From Methanothrix sp. (GTDB lineage Archaea; Halobacteriota; Methanosarcinia; Methanotrichales; Methanotrichaceae), in assembly GCA_963682135.1 (NCBI GenBank), contig OY821645.1:2656001-2720000 (forward strand): 64,000 nt of DNA, written 5' to 3'. Shown here piece after piece: positions 19,467 through 30,482 of the stretch. The stretch's first letter is position 1; every line of letters begins with the position of its first letter. The position numbers and the translations under genes were made by a program. The notes under the pieces are model-generated. The model was not told the DNA's origin. It did not search any database and was given only the letters and a program-made list of their open reading frames with translations.

Positions 19467-20948
19467 TCATCTGCATATGCTCACCAGTCGACTGACTCCG
19501 TCGCTTGTTATCATGCCTATTAACCTTTGATTGCCATCCACCACCGGAAGAGCCGAGATATTATGCTCATTCATGCGCTTGGCGGCTCGCTCGATTGGAT
19601 CTTCCTGAGCGGAGATGACCACCTTGCGGGTCATTATCTCCTCCAGCAGAGTGTACTTCAAGGCCACAGCCTTGGATACATCCCAGGCGGTGACAATCCC
19701 AACCAGCTTTCCTTCTGCGTTGATTACGGGCAGGTGAGTTACGCCCTCGTTCATCATGATTCCGGCTGCCTCCTCTACGCTGGAGCCCTGTTGGATGGTT
19801 ACTAGCTCTTTGATCATCACATCACCAACTGATCTGCGGGAGAGGAAATTTTGGATGGTATAATTCATCTGCCCGGATTCCAGGAGAAAAGCATCATGCC
19901 CGTAGTTTGATCGGATTGTGCAATGACGCACATCGATATCATTGGCACTGATAGCCTCAGCGATCTCTTTGCACTGGTAAGGCGGATAAAGCCAGTCTGA
20001 GCTAATGGATATGACCAGGAACTTTGTCTTGGCGCCCTTAAAGGCCTCAGCCAAAGAGAGAGTGCCATTCTTTGTCAGGTCGAAGTAGTCTATGGCCTTG
20101 GTGATGTAAAGATAGGAATTGGCATCGAAGCGCTTCACAAAGGCATCACCGTGGTAGCTCAGATAGCTCTCAACCTGAAAGTCCAGAGATGCGAGATCAA
20201 AGCCGAATTCTTTTTTGCCCTGCAAGCGCCGACCGAACTTCTGATGCATGGACTCGTCGCTGAGGTATGTGATATGCCCGATCATCCTGGCCAGAGAGAG
20301 ACCGCGAGCTGGAGGAGTTCGTCCGAAATAGTTGCCATTGTTCCAGTCCGGGTCTGAGGTTATGGCTCTGCGCCCCACCTCATTGAAAGCAATCTGCTGG
20401 GGTGAGGAGTAGGCGCTGGTGGCTATGGGCACGGCGAGACGCACCATCTCCGGGTAGGATATGCACCATTGCAAAACTTGCATTCCGCCAAAGGATCCGC
20501 CAATGACTGCAAATAGCTTATCTATACCTAGGTGATCCAGGAGCCTCTTTTGGACGTCCACCATATCTTTCAGCGTGATGAAGGGAAAGTCCAGGCTGTA
20601 AGGCTTTCCAGTCCTGGGATTAAGAGAGGAGGGACCTGTAGTCCCTTTGCATCCGCCCAGTACATTGGAGCATATGATAAAGAATTTATCGGTATCCAGA
20701 GCTTTACCTGGGCCGATGATAATGTCCCACCAGCCTGGTTTCTCTTCATTCTTATGCCAGCCACCAGCATGAGCGTCTCCGGAGAGAGCGTGGCAGATGA
20801 GGATGGCATTGCTCTTTTCTTTATTCAGAAGGCCATAGGTCTCGTAAGCAACTCTGGCCCCGTCGAGCCGGCCGCCATGCTCCAGGACTATCTCTTCTGG
20901 AATATGATAGCATTGAGTCTCAACTTGGCCCGCAGATTCGCGTTTCAT
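19467..20948 (-). CDS. metX: Homoserine O-acetyltransferase with C-terminal CBS pair
   Basis: HALSG, GGSFGG nucleophile elbow, GHDAFL; two CBS domains. Confidence 0.9.
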
Positions 20949-20963
20949 TTGAAATCTCTCTAA

Positions 20964-21605
20964 TTAAGGATAAACAATCATCTTCAAGGCGGTTTTATCT
21001 GCCGTAACTATGTTATTTTCATCCAGAGGAACCTCTTTAACTATTCCACCGGCAACCTCAACAGCCAGGAATTCTGTGTAATGCACCAGTGAAGAGACAA
21101 TCACGCTGTCACCCTTCTTAACAATGGACTGAGTTATAGCCTGAAATCCTCTACGGGCACCGGGGACGACCCGAGCCTGATCCATGTTCAGGAACTTGGC
21201 CAGATCCTGGTGGAACTCCTCAATTGGAGGACGGGTGATTTTATCGAGCCGGAAGGGCTTTCGGCAGTAGTCGCAGGTAGAGTAACCATCTCCATAAGAT
21301 ATGATGGCCTTGCGCGCCTCGGGCGTAAGCCTGCCCGCCGCCTGGATGGAGTGGATGTTTATGAACTCCTCTTCCCTGGTCCTTGGTTCGAGCTTTCCTA
21401 CCCTGTTGCAGGCTGGTTTGCCTTCACCTTTCTCCAAGTCGGAGATGATGCTCTTAATCCTCGTAATAGTATTGGAAAAGTCCTCTTGCTGCACCTCATC
21501 AAAACCTGCCGGTAGAGATTGCCTGAAGATCTCTCTGATATCCTCCAGGGCAAAGAGTGCCTCATATGTTTTCTGAATCTGTAGACTCTTTATGGATTCG
21601 CTCAC
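20964..21605 (-). pseudogene. pscS: Truncated Sep-tRNA:Cys-tRNA synthase with N-terminal SepCysE-like extension
   Basis: IQAAGRLTPEARKA, GDGYSTCDYC, PGARRGF, HYTE; stops at 213 aa, before the PLP-lysine region. Confidence 0.85.
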
Positions 21606-23720: not shown

Positions 23721-24024
23721 AAACTCATTATTAATTTTATCGTAATACCCGATGCTCGCATCGGTGATAAAGTGCATACGTATTCAACTTAGGCTTGGTA
23801 TCAATGCATCTTGGTTCCAGCTTCATGCGGCGGTGCCTCGGATGACTACCAGCTTACTGTGTGGGTGTACCGCAGCGGTTTCACTTGCGGATATATTTAA
23901 TATTTTTCCATCATTATTTCTTGAGCCTCTTAGTAGTATTATCATTTTGTCTCCCCCGTCCTTGCCGCAATCCAAACCTTCATTACCCCTTTCCCACCGT
24001 CCATCACAGTTTAGAGACCTCCAG

Positions 24025-24243
24025 ATGACCGCGCCTGCACCAAGCATCGACTACGCCGCCCTGAAGTCCGGCGGCATCATCATGCAAAAGGACGATGATT
24101 TATTCGCCCTACCCCTGCGCCTGCCCGGTGGCTGCATCGCTTCCAACCTTCTCCCAAAAATAGACGAGGTGGCCAAAAAATGCGGTCCGGTGGAAGTTCG
24201 CCTCACCACCAGGGCAGAGATGGAGATTCCCTGGATCAAATGA
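24025..24243 (+). pseudogene. N-terminal fragment of a nitrite/sulfite reductase-like (Dsr-LP) protein
   Basis: IDYAALKSGGII.QK..DLF...LRLPGG...V.LTTR..MEIPWI, then tandem TGA. Confidence 0.75.
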
Positions 24244-24557: not shown

Positions 24558-24854
24558 TCAACTGCCAGCTTGTGCCTCAGACTTGATCCTGATCTCTGAT
24601 TTCATGCGCTCCAGCATGCCCTGTTCCATGTTGGCCTTCTCGCAATGCGACGCCACCTTGGGATTGCAGTTCATCAAGACATCCATGGCCATATTTGCCA
24701 GAGAATTGCATCCGCAATCTTCCAGATCGGACAAGAACAGAGACATGCGATTGGCAAATTCCCGGCATTTCTCATAGTTTGCGATGGCATCGCTATGCAA
24801 TTTGCATAATAATTCGATTTCTTCTTCCTTCTCCGCCCAATTTATATCGTCCAT
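24558..24854 (-). CDS. Small helical Cys-containing hypothetical protein
   Basis: GGAGGG SD and ATG; clean ORF. Confidence 0.65.
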   Translation of the reverse strand: MDDINWAEKEEEIELLCKLHSDAIANYEKCREFANRMSLFLSDLEDCGCNSLANMAMDVLMNCNPKVASHCEKANMEQGMLERMKSEIRIKSEAQAGS

Positions 24855-24949
24855 AGCCCTCCGGCAAGTGAAATAATGATGAACGTCAATTATCTTTGCC
24901 GCAATCTACAGTTATTTGTGCTTCCAGTGAAGATGAATGTATTGGACGT

Positions 24950-25020
24950 GCCGGGGTGACTGACCGGTTAAGTGCGCGGCTGCAGACCGCGAGAATTGGG
25001 TTCGACTCCCAACCCCGGCC
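24950..25020 (+). tRNA. Non-canonical tRNA-Cys(GCA) or tRNA-like element
   Basis: Stems GCCGGGG/CCCCGGC, ACT/AGT, CGCGG-CTGCAGA-CCGCG and TTGGG-TTCGACT-CCCAA; discriminator C. Confidence 0.85.
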
Positions 25021-25022
25021 TT

Positions 25023-26468
25023 ATGTTGATCAATAGCACCATGAGCGGCAAGAAGGAGCCTTTCTTGCCTATTCATGACAATCGCGTTAACCTCTTTGTA
25101 TGCGGTCCAACCGTTTATGACAATTCGCATATCGGCCATGCCAGAACCTATATCTTCTTTGATGTGGTGGCACGCTACCTCAAGCACATTGGTTTTAGCG
25201 TCTTTTATCTGCAAAATATCACCGATGTGGACGACAAGATAATTGACCGGGCAGCCCTGCAGGGCATCTCGCCCCGACTGCTGGCACGCACCTTCGAAGA
25301 GAAATACCGTGAGGACATGCAGGCATTGGGCGTGACCAGCATCAACTACTATGCCCGCGCCTCAGAGCATATTCCTGAGATCATCAGCCAAATTAGCAGG
25401 CTGATTGAGAAGGGTTTTGCCTATGAGACACAGACCGGTGTGTACTTTGACGAATCCCGTTTCAAGGACTTTGGAAAGCTCTCTCATCAGAGCCTGGAAG
25501 ACCTGGAAAAACACAGGATTGAGCCGGATCCGACCAAGAGAAATCCTGGGGACTTCTCGCTGTGGAAGAAGCGGCAGGACGGCCCGGAGGTCACCTGGGA
25601 CTCGCCCTGGGGAAAGGGCAGACCTGGTTGGCATATCGAGGACACGGCCATCACTGAGAGCTATTTCGGGGCGCAGTACGATATTCATGGCGGAGCCATG
25701 GACCTGATCTTTCCTCACCACGAGGCTGAGATCGCCCAGATGGAGGCGACATCCGGCAAAAAGCCGCTGGTGAGATTCTGGATGCACACCGGCTTTCTCA
25801 ACGTCAACGGCGAGAAGATGTCAAAATCGTTGGGCAACTTCACCACCATCCGGGAGATGCTGGCGAAGTTCGATGCCGATTCGTTCCGCTTCTTTGTGCT
25901 CTCCTCCCATTATCATAGCCCGATCGACTTCTCAGAGTCGGCTTTAGAGCAGTCGAGAAAGAGCCTGGAGCGCATTCGCCAGGCGGCAAAGGCCATCGAG
26001 GAGGAACTGGAAAGGACGCCACAGTCTGCGAACGAGGCATCCCTGAAAGACGAAGCAGATGATGCGGGAATGGCTGAATTCAAGGCCAAGTTTCTCGATT
26101 CGATGGACAACGACTTCAACACTCCCTATGCCCTGAAAGCCGTCTTCGAGCTGGTAAGAGAGGTCAACCGCCGCATAAACGAGAGGACCATCTCCAAAGA
26201 AAGCCTGAGCGAGGCAGGACGACTGCTGGATGATTTCGGGCGAATACTCGGCATCAGCTTTTCGCCTGCAAAGTGCGGGCACTCTGAAGGTTTCGGGAAT
26301 AACCAGGATCTTACTGGCAATCTAATTGAACTGTTGATTGATGTAAGGCAGAAACTGCGAGATAAAAAGGATTGGGCTCTGGCCGACGAGATCAGAAACC
26401 GGTTAAACGAGCACGGCATCGTCCTGGAAGACGCTAAGTCCGGCGGAGGAAGATACTCGATCAAATGA
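25023..26468 (+). CDS. cysS: Cysteinyl-tRNA synthetase (variant with WHIED)
   Basis: CGPTVY, HIGH, KMSKS, FPHHE, DDFNTP-like motif and anticodon-binding helices. Confidence 0.95.
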   Translation: MLINSTMSGKKEPFLPIHDNRVNLFVCGPTVYDNSHIGHARTYIFFDVVARYLKHIGFSVFYLQNITDVDDKIIDRAALQGISPRLLARTFEEKYREDMQALGVTSINYYARASEHIPEIISQISRLIEKGFAYETQTGVYFDESRFKDFGKLSHQSLEDLEKHRIEPDPTKRNPGDFSLWKKRQDGPEVTWDSPWGKGRPGWHIEDTAITESYFGAQYDIHGGAMDLIFPHHEAEIAQMEATSGKKPLVRFWMHTGFLNVNGEKMSKSLGNFTTIREMLAKFDADSFRFFVLSSHYHSPIDFSESALEQSRKSLERIRQAAKAIEEELERTPQSANEASLKDEADDAGMAEFKAKFLDSMDNDFNTPYALKAVFELVREVNRRINERTISKESLSEAGRLLDDFGRILGISFSPAKCGHSEGFGNNQDLTGNLIELLIDVRQKLRDKKDWALADEIRNRLNEHGIVLEDAKSGGGRYSIK

Positions 26469-26603
26469 TTATAATTGGGGTCAATATTGCCGCAATCGCA
26501 GACTTGATAATGGATCAGGTTGCAGGACAGATTGGTGAAATGAAAATGAGGGATCGACTTTGCAGAAACCAAAAATGAATCGACCAGCACGAAGATAGAG
26601 CAC

Positions 26604-26825
26604 TTGCCACCATCGGCAAAGCTTGTCTTTAAGGTGCTGGAATCAGGCAGCCTTCTCACGCAAAAAGATATCGTCGCCAAGACCTATCTTCCGCAAAGGA
26701 CCGTAAGGTATGCCCTGAACCGATTGAAGGAACAACATATCCTTCAAGAGCGCTTCTATTTCCAGGATGCGCGCCAGAGCCTCTATGGACTGAGTCCCGA
26801 AACCCAGGAGGTGGTGGCAGAGTAA
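26604..26825 (+). CDS. Small winged-helix DNA-binding protein
   Basis: LPPSAKLVFKVL..G.LTQKDI...LP.RTVRYAL.RL...DARQSLY. Confidence 0.85.
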   Translation: MPPSAKLVFKVLESGSLLTQKDIVAKTYLPQRTVRYALNRLKEQHILQERFYFQDARQSLYGLSPETQEVVAE

Positions 26826-27063: not shown

Positions 27064-28563
<1,500 letters not shown>

Positions 28564-28582
28564 TTAAATGAGAGGTTTACTT

Positions 28583-29512
28583 ATGGGAAGGATCTATGAA
28601 GATCTAACCAAGACCATTGGCAATACGCCTCTGGTAAGATTGAACAGAATCACGAAGGGCCTGGATGCTACCGTGCTGGTAAAGCTGGAATCATTCAATC
28701 CCTTGAGCAGCGTCAAAGACCGAATCGGCGTCTCCATGATTGAGGCAGCAGAAAAGGCGGGCCATATCAAGGAGGATACCATTATCCTTGAGCCTACTAG
28801 CGGCAATACCGGAATCGCTCTGGCTTTTGTCAGCGCCGCCAAGGGCTACAAGCTGACCCTCGTCATGCCTGAAACCATGTCTATTGAGCGGCGAAAGCTG
28901 CTCAAGGCTCTGGGCGCTGATCTGGTCCTCACTCCAGGAAGCCAGGGAATGAAGGGAGCAGTGAGTACGGCAGAAGAAATGCTTGTTAAAGATCCTCGCT
29001 TCTACTACATCCCCCAGCAGTTTAGAAATCCGTCCAATCCCGAGGTCCACCGCAAGACCACGGCAGAGGAGATCTGGCGGGATACAGACGGAATGGTGGA
29101 CATTCTCGTAGCTGGTGTGGGCACCGGCGGAACCATAACCGGAATTGCTGATGTCATAAAGTCCAGGAAGCCTGGCTTCAAGGCAGTGGCAGTCGAGCCA
29201 TCTGCCTCCCCGGTTCTCTCCGGAGGCAAACCGGGACCGCACAAAATCCAGGGATTGGCGCCGGGATTCGTGCCCGACGTTCTCAAGCTCGACCTGGTGG
29301 ATGAGATAGTCAAAGTGGAGTACGAGGATGCAGTAAAAACTGCTCGCCGCCTGGCAAGAGAAGAAGGCATCTTGGTCGGCATCTCCTCAGGAGCCGCCGC
29401 CTGGGCTGGACTGGAGCTGGCAGCAAGACCGGAGAATAAAGGGAAGCAGATTGTGGTAATCCTCCCCGACACCGGAGAGCGCTACCTCAGCACCGAGCTA
29501 TTCGAATTCTAG
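28583..29512 (+). CDS. cysK: Cysteine synthase A
   Basis: [24 protein letters not shown]; GAGG SD. Confidence 0.95.
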
Positions 29513-29525
29513 GGGTGGGCAGGAG

Positions 29526-30482
29526 ATGAGCATCAGAGAGGATATCCGGACCATCTTTGCCAAGGACCCCGCTGCCAAGTCTACCCTAGAAGTAATCACC
29601 TGCTATCCGGGGCTGCATGCCATCTGGATGCACCGGATCTCTCACTTCCTCTGGGCTCATAAACTCTTTTTTCTAGCCAGATTCAGCTCCCATATCAGCC
29701 GATTCCTGACAGGCGTCGAGATCCACCCCGGAGCAAAAATCGGCAAGCGGTTCTTCATCGATCACGGCATGGGGGTGGTCATAGGCGAGACAGCCGAGGT
29801 AGGAGATGATGTGTTGATGTACATGGGAACGGTCCTGGGCGGAACCAGTCTCGACAAAGTCAAGCGCCATCCCACGGTCGAGGACCGGGTGGTCATCGGC
29901 GCTGGCTCCATCATACTTGGACCGATCACCATAGGAAACGGCGCCAAGATCGGAGCAGGTTCGGTGGTGGTTCGGTCTGTGCCTGCGGGAGCAACTGTGG
30001 TAGGTGTGCCTGGAAGAATCGCCGAACCGGAATGCCCGGCAACAGGAACGGATCTGAACTATGCCAATCTGCCCGATCCCATGCTGCGAGTGGTAAGCAG
30101 ACTGCTCGACCGGCAAAACCGACTGGAGGAGCGGCTGCGCTCTCTGCAAAAAGCTATGAGCGGGCCGGAGGCGGAGATGCTGGTGGCCCAAATGAAAAAA
30201 GAAGAGGAGATTCGAGAGGCTTTGCGGGATGTTCTCGACCCTGAGGTGGGCATAGATATCGTGGACCTGGGACTGATCAAAGATATAATCATTCGCAGCG
30301 AGGATACTGTGGAGGTGAACATGGTGCTGACCTCCCAGGTTTGCCCCATGGTCAGCCACCTCACAGAGCAGGTAAAAAGGCGCGTGAAAGGCCTCAACGG
30401 CATTCGACAGGTTGAGGTTAGGGTCTTAGATGAGCCCTGGAACTGGGAATACTTCGTCAAGCAGCAGAAATCGAGGGCTTAG
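29526..30482 (+). CDS. cysE: Serine O-acetyltransferase fused to a C-terminal DUF59/SufT-like domain
   Basis: DPAA, EIHPGA, FIDHG, KRHPT; C-terminal [14 protein letters not shown]...LTS..CP. Confidence 0.9.

Follow-up and report, generated by a model that had tools for sequence, protein, structure and literature searches.

We analysed a 64,000-nucleotide (nt) stretch of Methanothrix sp. DNA (assembly GCA_963682135.1, contig OY821645.1, positions 2,656,001 to 2,720,000 of the forward strand), hereafter the window, in which a tRNA-Cys gene with the anticodon GCA and a cytosine at the discriminator position 73 lies immediately ahead of cysS, the gene for cysteinyl-tRNA synthetase (CysRS). An earlier note on this DNA had proposed the two as a dedicated pair set apart from the SepRS/SepCysS route to Cys-tRNA. 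The features on which the analysis turns are listed here in window coordinates.

24896..24920, + strand: promoter-like block (TTGCCGCAATC ... TTATTTGTG), which recurs upstream of the tRNA in relatives
24950..25020, + strand: tRNA-Cys(GCA), 71 nt, C73, G37, CCA not encoded (ARAGORN, Rfam, covariation in relatives)
25021..25022, + strand: 2-nt spacer, TT, from the discriminator base to the cysS start codon (sequence and related loci)
25023..26468, + strand: cysS, cysteinyl-tRNA synthetase, 481 amino acids (frame translated from ATG, family models)
25452..25454, + strand: GAA codon, encoding Glu144 (YFD-E-S), found to vary together with C73 (CysRS alignment columns)
25641..25643, + strand: GAC codon for Asp207, opposite a zinc-ligand Cys of other CysRS (aligned with PDB 8qhp and 3tqo)

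Of the two tRNAs that ARAGORN called in the window, the one at 24950-25020 (+ strand) is tRNA-Cys(gca), and the Rfam model RF00005 matched the same letters at 53.4 bits (gathering score 29, E 5.3e-10, model positions 1-71). This confirms the GCA cloverleaf without U73, and cysS 2 nt behind it, that had been described from the letters alone. The 7-base-pair acceptor stem, GCCGGGG/CCCCGGC, is followed directly by C, then by TT and ATG, hence the discriminator is C73 and no CCA is encoded; the window tRNA departs from the U73 discriminator of tRNA-Cys. In an alignment of 25 distinct related linked tRNAs (A2), which includes 12 distinct Methanobacteriaceae cysS-linked tRNAs, position 73 is C in 23 and T in 2, and the GCA anticodon present in the window tRNA is invariant in all 25. 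Standard pairs occupy 99.8% of the cells, 8 of the 20 pairs show compensatory changes spanning all four helices, and the covariation score of the cloverleaf was reached by 0 of 500 shuffles. The cloverleaf is therefore not due to chance, and 24950-25020 is a genuine second tRNA-Cys(GCA).

The window protein matched the cysS family model TIGR00435 at 504.3 bits (cut-off 340; residues 3-474) and PF01406 at 394 bits, and matches to the DALR_2 and CysS_C (anticodon-binding) domains show it to be full length. The class I motifs HIGH, at residues 36-39, and KMSKS both align with those of solved CysRS. The CysRS paralogue MshC (mycothiol cysteine ligase) was considered and rejected, as TIGR03447 reached 273.2 bits against a cut-off of 485.1 and covered residues 20-329 only. 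Because alignment with the family model and with solved CysRS sets in at residue 3-5, and Met7 is found in only some relatives, we place the cysS start at the first ATG (25023), 2 nt after the tRNA. One database version of the protein has 467 amino acids, that is, a later start was called.

Among 25 related Methanotrichaceae loci, 22 have a 2-nt spacer between tRNA and ATG and two have a 1-nt spacer; the remaining locus is a decayed copy with ACG where ATG is expected. A gap of 1-2 nt leaves no space for a separate promoter or ribosome-binding site, so that cysS would have to be transcribed through the tRNA, which implies one transcript. The block TTGCCGCWAYCC ... TATTWGTG (TTGCCGCWAYCC..CARNTATTWGTG), which most distinct Methanotrichaceae loci have at a constant distance of 28-52 nt 5′ of the tRNA (30-54 nt in the window), may be an archaeal promoter of the TATA/B recognition element (BRE) type. 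It is known that tRNA 3′ cleavage falls after the discriminator base, and that archaea are able to translate leaderless mRNAs. One metatranscriptome run (0.07 of sampled words present as contigs) gave short pieces, 90-95% alike, inside cysS and none across the tRNA junction, and is too sparse to bear on transcripts. In runs X2 and X4 contigs break inside the tRNA, and another short contig corresponds to 24769-24806 and 24927-24983, its letters between the two differing, indicating that a variant upstream region coexists in these samples.

The source assembly is a single contig of 3.04 Mb, in which ARAGORN called 44 tRNA genes. These include a second tRNA-Cys(GCA) (C1:2030175-2030246, 72 nt) with T73, so that the genome holds two tRNA-Cys(GCA) genes, one C73 and one T73. 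The same genome carries an intact SepRS (751 bits) and, outside the window locus, a full SepCysS (556 bits; G000 C1:2979364-2980452). Thus the canonical U73 tRNA-Cys for which a genome-wide search had been advised is present, beside SepRS and intact SepCysS. The sole CysRS is the window cysS, other matches being weak (23-27 bits) and in long open frames. One genome holds a complete indirect route with its canonical tRNA, plus an extra tRNA/CysRS pair.

SepRS was found in all 61 Methanotrichaceae genomes, CysRS in 23 and the C73 tRNA in 22, and the 38 genomes that lack cysS gave no C73 tRNA. BLAST detected the canonical tRNA-Cys lineage in 46 of the 61, among them all 22 with the C73 tRNA. In the genome with cysS and no tRNA match (G010) a part of the tRNA persists, its 3′ half with C73, followed by 2 nt and ATG, and in G018 an NN assembly gap interrupts the tRNA upstream of cysS. 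Thirty cysS loci were fetched; the tRNA lies directly upstream in 25 of these (a count that includes the window itself and two loci overlapping one place), with C73 in 25/25. Since C73 is found in all of these loci and in a sister Methanobacteriaceae clade, it is neither a private mutation nor a read error, the outcome that would have undone the earlier proposal. CysRS identity falls to ~62% across the family. Frameshifts, stops or loss of the start codon disrupt some copies of the module (L029, L031 and L038), and some genomes hold two or three diverged modules (L017 and L032 in G019; L020 and L033 in G004), as would be expected of a cassette that can be dispensed with and duplicated. Within Methanotrichaceae the tRNA and cysS form an accessory unit, inherited together and optional. 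A search for an empty site, with 6 kb of the locus set against same-genus genomes without cysS, matched only short repeated elements, and no insertion boundary could be defined.

An alignment of 143 CysRS was scanned for columns fixed in C73-linked enzymes and rare elsewhere. Four positions emerged, 144, 150, 164 and 288, and only 144 is exclusive to C73-linked CysRS. The other three were rejected as signatures; their residues are unlike those of most CysRS but vary independently of the discriminator, and Ile144 enzymes, too, contain 'KHRIEPD'. Glu144 occurs in 52 of the 143 enzymes, all of the Methanotrichaceae-Methanobacteriaceae clade, and in 0 of the 84 from other lineages. Wherever a Glu144 enzyme has a called upstream tRNA, that tRNA is C73 (47/47); the other five Glu144 enzymes belong to truncated loci or flanks, to an N gap or to the G010 remnant. 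All Methanotrichaceae copies with a called linked tRNA combine Glu144 with C73. Outside the C73-linked CysRS the residue is Ile, Val or Thr: two Methanobacteriaceae enzymes of this set whose linked tRNA is T73 have Ile144, and Methanobrevibacter-like enzymes have Val144.

In the CysRS tree (FastTree, midpoint rooted) Methanotrichaceae are sister to Methanobacteriaceae with a support of 1.00, and in the latter the same 71-nt C73 tRNA lies ~35-330 nt upstream of cysS, across variable AT-rich spacers. We regard the pairs of the two families as probably of shared descent. A wider sample of 111 Methanobacteriaceae genomes, mostly drafts in which a gene not found need not be a gene absent, contained CysRS in 103 and SepRS in 62. 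The 5′ part of each cysS together with 450 nt upstream gave 103 readable fragments, one gene being unreadable and one genome having two. They fall into the following classes.

Glu144 with linked C73 tRNA-Cys: 45 genes, 44 in SepRS genomes
Ile144 or Val144 with linked T73 tRNA-Cys: 28 genes, 4 in SepRS genomes
Val144 or Thr144, no tRNA-Cys within ~450 nt: 30 genes, 7 in SepRS genomes
Glu144 with T73: 0 genes
Residue other than Glu144 with C73: 0 genes

Where a tRNA-Cys lies upstream, the Methanobacteriaceae cysS genes, 73 in all, therefore divide into 45 Glu/C73 and 28 Ile-Val/T73 with zero exceptions. On the best tree from a quick reconstruction that left out column 144, each trait changes five times, always both together. 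Hence the proposed co-evolution of C73 with a change in CysRS holds in that the enzyme co-varies with the discriminator, but the co-varying residue is Glu144 and not Asp207. Residue 144 sits in the CP (insertion) domain of CysRS; with this placement, a change in the acceptor-end region of the enzyme goes with the discriminator, Glu with C73 in 45/45 and Ile or Val with T73 in 28/28. On chemical grounds the Glu144 carboxylate could act as hydrogen-bond acceptor for the N4 amino group of cytosine and not for O4 of uracil, and Glu144 and C73 may be in direct contact. A CP1 motif of CysRS is described as reading the first acceptor base pair (PMC5389517).

As the earlier note had stated, U73 and the GCA anticodon are major identity determinants for both CysRS and SepRS (PMC9976931; PMC8762117). 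The SepCysS pocket is described as 'exclusively for U73', with U73G weakening binding (PMC5688128). In the Methanobacteriaceae sample, 44 of the 45 Glu/C73 genes are in SepRS genomes, compared with 11 of the 58 non-Glu genes. In G067 neither SepRS nor a canonical tRNA-Cys was found, and the cysS-linked tRNA is T73 with Ile144. Canonical tRNA-Cys in this family was located by covariance model, a fixed pattern having matched the cysS-linked copies only. These distributions are compatible with retention of C73/Glu144 alongside the indirect route. The position next to the anticodon also differs in some of the linked tRNAs: the canonical tRNA-Cys adjoining tRNA-Trp has G37 in all SepRS genomes examined, and 6 of the 12 distinct Methanobacteriaceae linked tRNAs (loci L051, L054, L055, L062, L065 and L069) have A37 instead. 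Half of the distinct linked tRNAs of that family are thus without the m1G37 determinant described for SepRS (PMC9976931; PMC8762117; PMC5688128).

We propose, with a probability of roughly 60%, that the locus is a co-evolved, direct-charging tRNA-Cys(C73)/CysRS(Glu144) cassette whose two genes are inherited and transcribed together and whose tRNA is kept apart from SepRS and SepCysS. Starting from the observed anatomy, the co-inheritance, the 144/73 covariation and the coexistence with SepRS, we infer a course of co-transcription, processing, leaderless translation and charging as follows. A single promoter ~30 nt 5′ of the tRNA would give a tRNA-cysS precursor, from which tRNA end-processing would release the tRNA, with CCA added afterwards. 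The same cut would leave a cysS mRNA with a 1-2-nt leader, its 5′ end corresponding to tRNA position 74, which would be translated as a leaderless message. CysRS would then charge the C73 tRNA with free cysteine supplied by the neighbouring cysE and cysK, and C73 instead of U73 would keep the linked tRNA off the SepRS/SepCysS route, which would serve the housekeeping U73 tRNA-Cys. A stronger version is more doubtful and we advance it tentatively: the pair might be an orthogonal second cysteine system, defined by a single residue and a single base, with insulation from SepRS/SepCysS and from the U73 tRNA working both ways, and in Methanotrichaceae it might amount to a self-processing tRNA-mRNA transcript in which tRNA maturation generates a leaderless synthetase message, a portable 'plug-in' decoding unit.

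Several observations weigh against the proposed cassette. Kin are not independent, so few independent events stand behind the perfect 144/73 pattern: only two independent Glu/non-Glu contrasts fall on well supported branches (five on the whole best tree), and a sign test is not significant. The link to SepRS is weak after correction for relatedness. One Glu/C73 genome (G107) had no SepRS found, four SepRS genomes (G075, G130, G133 and G144) have Ile or Val at 144 with a T73 linked tRNA, and seven SepRS genomes have CysRS and no linked tRNA; hence C73/Glu144 is not required for the two routes to coexist. SepRS is also reported to be less sensitive than CysRS to changes at position 73 (PMC5688128), which makes exclusion from SepRS less sure than exclusion from SepCysS.

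The alternative that survives best, though we judge it unlikely, is one-way insulation, in which CysRS charges both C73 and U73 tRNA-Cys, Glu144 widens its tolerance and C73 only shields one pool from SepRS/SepCysS. In relatives nested in the same CysRS clade, one substitution at 144 goes with the use of U73 tRNAs, so the switch is small and easily crossed, and some methanogens share one tRNA between SepRS and CysRS (PMC8762117). However, a tolerant Glu144 enzyme predicts some Glu/T73 combinations, and 0/73 were seen; moreover every loss of C73 is accompanied by loss of Glu.

We consider it improbable that the tRNA acts mainly in cis, as a processing handle that makes or stabilises the 5′ end of the cysS mRNA or as a feedback site for CysRS, with decoding secondary. 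The rigid 1-2-nt spacing in 24 of the 25 Methanotrichaceae loci, with no space for a ribosome-binding site, would suit such a role, but the Methanobacteriaceae tRNAs lie ~35-330 nt upstream behind variable AT-rich spacers, so abutment is not needed. In addition, compensatory change preserves the four stems, T loop and GCA anticodon, and the discriminator co-varies with an enzyme residue, as expected of a charged substrate.

More improbable still is a frozen accident, C73/Glu144 having arisen once in a donor lineage and travelled with the cassette with no functional tie to SepRS. Against this stand the SepRS genomes of 44/45 Glu/C73 genes, the sampled SepRS-free lineages, which have Ile or Val with T73 or no linked tRNA, and the G73 and A73 variants of other methanogen genera, where SepRS and CysRS are said only to be such that they 'may be orthogonal' (PMC8762117). 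The weakness of the SepRS association once phylogenetically corrected, and the existence of SepRS genomes with a U73-type CysRS, speak for it.

The earlier note had tied the altered tRNA to a different feature of the enzyme, Asp at a zinc-ligand position. That reading of the sequence was correct, as 'PGWHIEDTAIT' of the window aligned residue for residue with 'PGWHIECS' of PDB 8qhp and 3tqo, Asp207 standing opposite Cys. The zinc site of E. coli CysRS consists of C28, C209, H234 and E238, and the Cys opposite Asp207 would be C209; by this mapping the Cys/Cys/His/Glu set is broken at its second Cys, which is Asp207, and Cys27, His232 and Glu236 are kept. A literature search found no paper combining 'Cys209' and CysRS. 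GWHIED is present in 120/120 of the closest database homologues, and among the 150 best 50%-identity cluster representatives of CysRS the residue is Asp in 37 (35 GWHIED, 2 GWHVED) and Cys in 110, with no motif match in 3, hence the zinc Cys is no strict family-defining feature. Asp-type CysRS occur on contigs named as Methanobacterium, Methanobrevibacter, Methanospirillum, Methanoregula, Methanophagales and Thermoplasmataceae, and further on those named as Nitrososphaerota, Bathyarchaeia, DPANN archaea and many Patescibacteria. They adjoin tRNA-Cys with U73 (L090, L094, L078) and with G73 (L114, L116). Asp207 thus does not track C73 and appears to be a normal clade-wide ligand variant.

In four Methanobrevibacter-like genomes exactly one CysRS, of the Asp type, was found, with no SepRS found and U73 tRNA-Cys only. 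There it is the sole detectable route to Cys-tRNA and so necessarily a working CysRS, which leaves the suggested homocysteine and sulfur-carrier roles without basis. The idea that Asp207 alters the thiol-selecting zinc site, leading to loading of homocysteine or another thiol or to a tRNA that is a non-translational sulfur carrier, draws on the Cys-to-Asp change and the locus context (metX, metY, cysK, cysE) and can be set aside as highly improbable, given the frequency of Asp among homologues, its independence of the discriminator, those single-CysRS genomes, and the intact Cys27, HIGH 36-39, His232, Glu236 and KMSKS (ligands again mapped by E. coli numbering). The window enzyme is most likely an ordinary cysteine-specific CysRS, as predicted from its sequence.

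The kind of system is already known, and the Methanothrix pair is not a new kind. Non-canonical CysRS/tRNA-Cys variants have been surveyed in print, as the earlier note had cautioned: G73 in Methanospirillum and Methanoregula, C73 in some Methanobacterium and A73 in Methanolobus and Methanocella (Perona et al. 2018, cited in a Front Genet 2022 review, PMC8762117), where possible orthogonality of such pairs to SepRS was also suggested for other methanogens. The C73 of Methanobacteriaceae and the G73 of Methanospirillum and Methanoregula were reproduced in the loci analysed here, and SepRS beside a G73 tRNA was confirmed only in the latter two genera. Those non-U73 pairs resemble ours in forming a second cysteine route beside SepRS/SepCysS, with both the discriminator and the acceptor-binding region of CysRS changed; they differ in that the parts of the review drawn on here name neither Methanothrix nor Methanotrichaceae, and in that the Methanothrix tRNA abuts cysS by 1-2 nt in a module that is optional in the family (PMC8762117). 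In a system reported in 2022 (PMC9499178) two tRNAs for the same amino acid are likewise kept apart in one cell by the discriminator and a small synthetase change. There, however, the synthetases are paralogues from a single family and the separation was demonstrated by experiment, whereas in Methanothrix the separation is a proposed one, between unrelated enzymes, class I CysRS against class II SepRS plus SepCysS.

The selC* tRNA-Cys/CysRS* of Desulfobacterales (Mukai et al., NAR 2017, PMC5389517) is also an extra cysS copy genetically tied to an unusual tRNA-Cys, with CP1-domain changes that match the altered acceptor end. In contrast to our pair, CysRS* is without the anticodon-binding domain and its tRNA has an 8/4 fold, A1:U72 and often a UCA anticodon (PMC5389517). 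The Methanothrix pair has a full-length CysRS (DALR_2, CysS_C), a 7/5 cloverleaf and GCA. In E. coli tRNA-tufB and in mitochondrial 'tRNA punctuation' a tRNA stands directly before a coding region, so that tRNA processing sets the mRNA end. The Methanothrix arrangement differs in joining a synthetase to the tRNA that it would charge, and in being archaeal.

A literature search whose range stopped short of the Perona et al. 2018 chapter and of any supplements found no paper naming Methanosaeta or Methanothrix together with a C73 tRNA-Cys. As far as can be told from a comparison of the same range, the apparently new elements are the membership of Methanotrichaceae, the strict abutment of tRNA and reading frame, the presence/absence pattern of the cassette and the Glu144/C73 rule with its natural revertants. 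Methanotrichaceae, major acetate-using methanogens, join the archaea with two routes to Cys-tRNA, and their direct route is an optional, co-inherited cassette of tRNA and synthetase beside cysteine-synthesis genes. The pattern of Glu144/C73 against Ile-Val/U73 points to a single residue-base switch that is directly testable; were it confirmed, orthogonal CysRS/tRNA pairs could be modelled on this natural example. With its 1-2-nt junction the locus also provides a compact case, from an archaeon, of an mRNA 5′ end that tRNA processing is expected to set. A false lead is also removed, the zinc-site Asp being a common natural variant with no sign of altered substrate choice.

The neighbouring genes that the earlier note had named, metX, metY, cysK, cysE and a broken SepCysS, were all recovered by family-model search.

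19467-20948, - strand: metX, homoserine acyltransferase with a C-terminal CBS domain pair (domain search)
20964-21605, - strand: truncated SepCysS N-terminal fragment, 213 amino acids (model positions 2-122 of 370; PRK09331 positions 7-149 of 397)
27064-28554, - strand: O-acetylhomoserine sulfhydrylase, metY type (TIGR01326, 657 bits)
28568-29512, + strand: cysK (TIGR01139, 463.6 bits)
29526-30482, + strand: cysE fused to a C-terminal SufT-like/SUF-associated Fe-S assembly domain (TIGR01172, 236.5 bits; SUF_assoc, 70.1 bits)

The SepCysS fragment ends 16 nt before metX and may be either a relic or an independent N-terminal unit. Upstream of the module, ~160 nt at 23727-23890, inside the open reading frame 23752-24243, have many copies in same-genus genomes and also at C1:1040446 and C1:2844602, and look like a repeated element or gene fragment; the C-terminus of this reading frame matches half of a nitrite/sulfite-reductase ferredoxin-like domain. 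Just 3′ of cysS, the stretch 26530-26816 recurs at 72-73% identity, both at G000 C1:2952523-2953071 and in several relatives, where it frequently lies close to cysS.

The sequence TTGCCGCAATC occurs on the + strand at 23962, 24896 and 26487, within 2.6 kb around the module, and a looser pattern has 26 matches in the 3.04-Mb genome. The copy at 24896 belongs to the conserved block 5′ of the tRNA, and that at 26487 is preceded by a similar GTCAAT. These copies could be a regulator site or the trace of an insertion. We did not adopt them as module ends or attachment sites, the upstream copy being part of the promoter-like block. Elsewhere in the genome ARAGORN returned three odd calls of 80-92 nt (G000 C1:2601380-2601471, 513077-513163 and 2062393-2062472), namely a tRNA with a two-base anticodon, a tRNA-Ile(aat) and a tRNA-Phe(aaa). 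They may be false, or may come from intron-containing tRNAs read with the intron option switched off.

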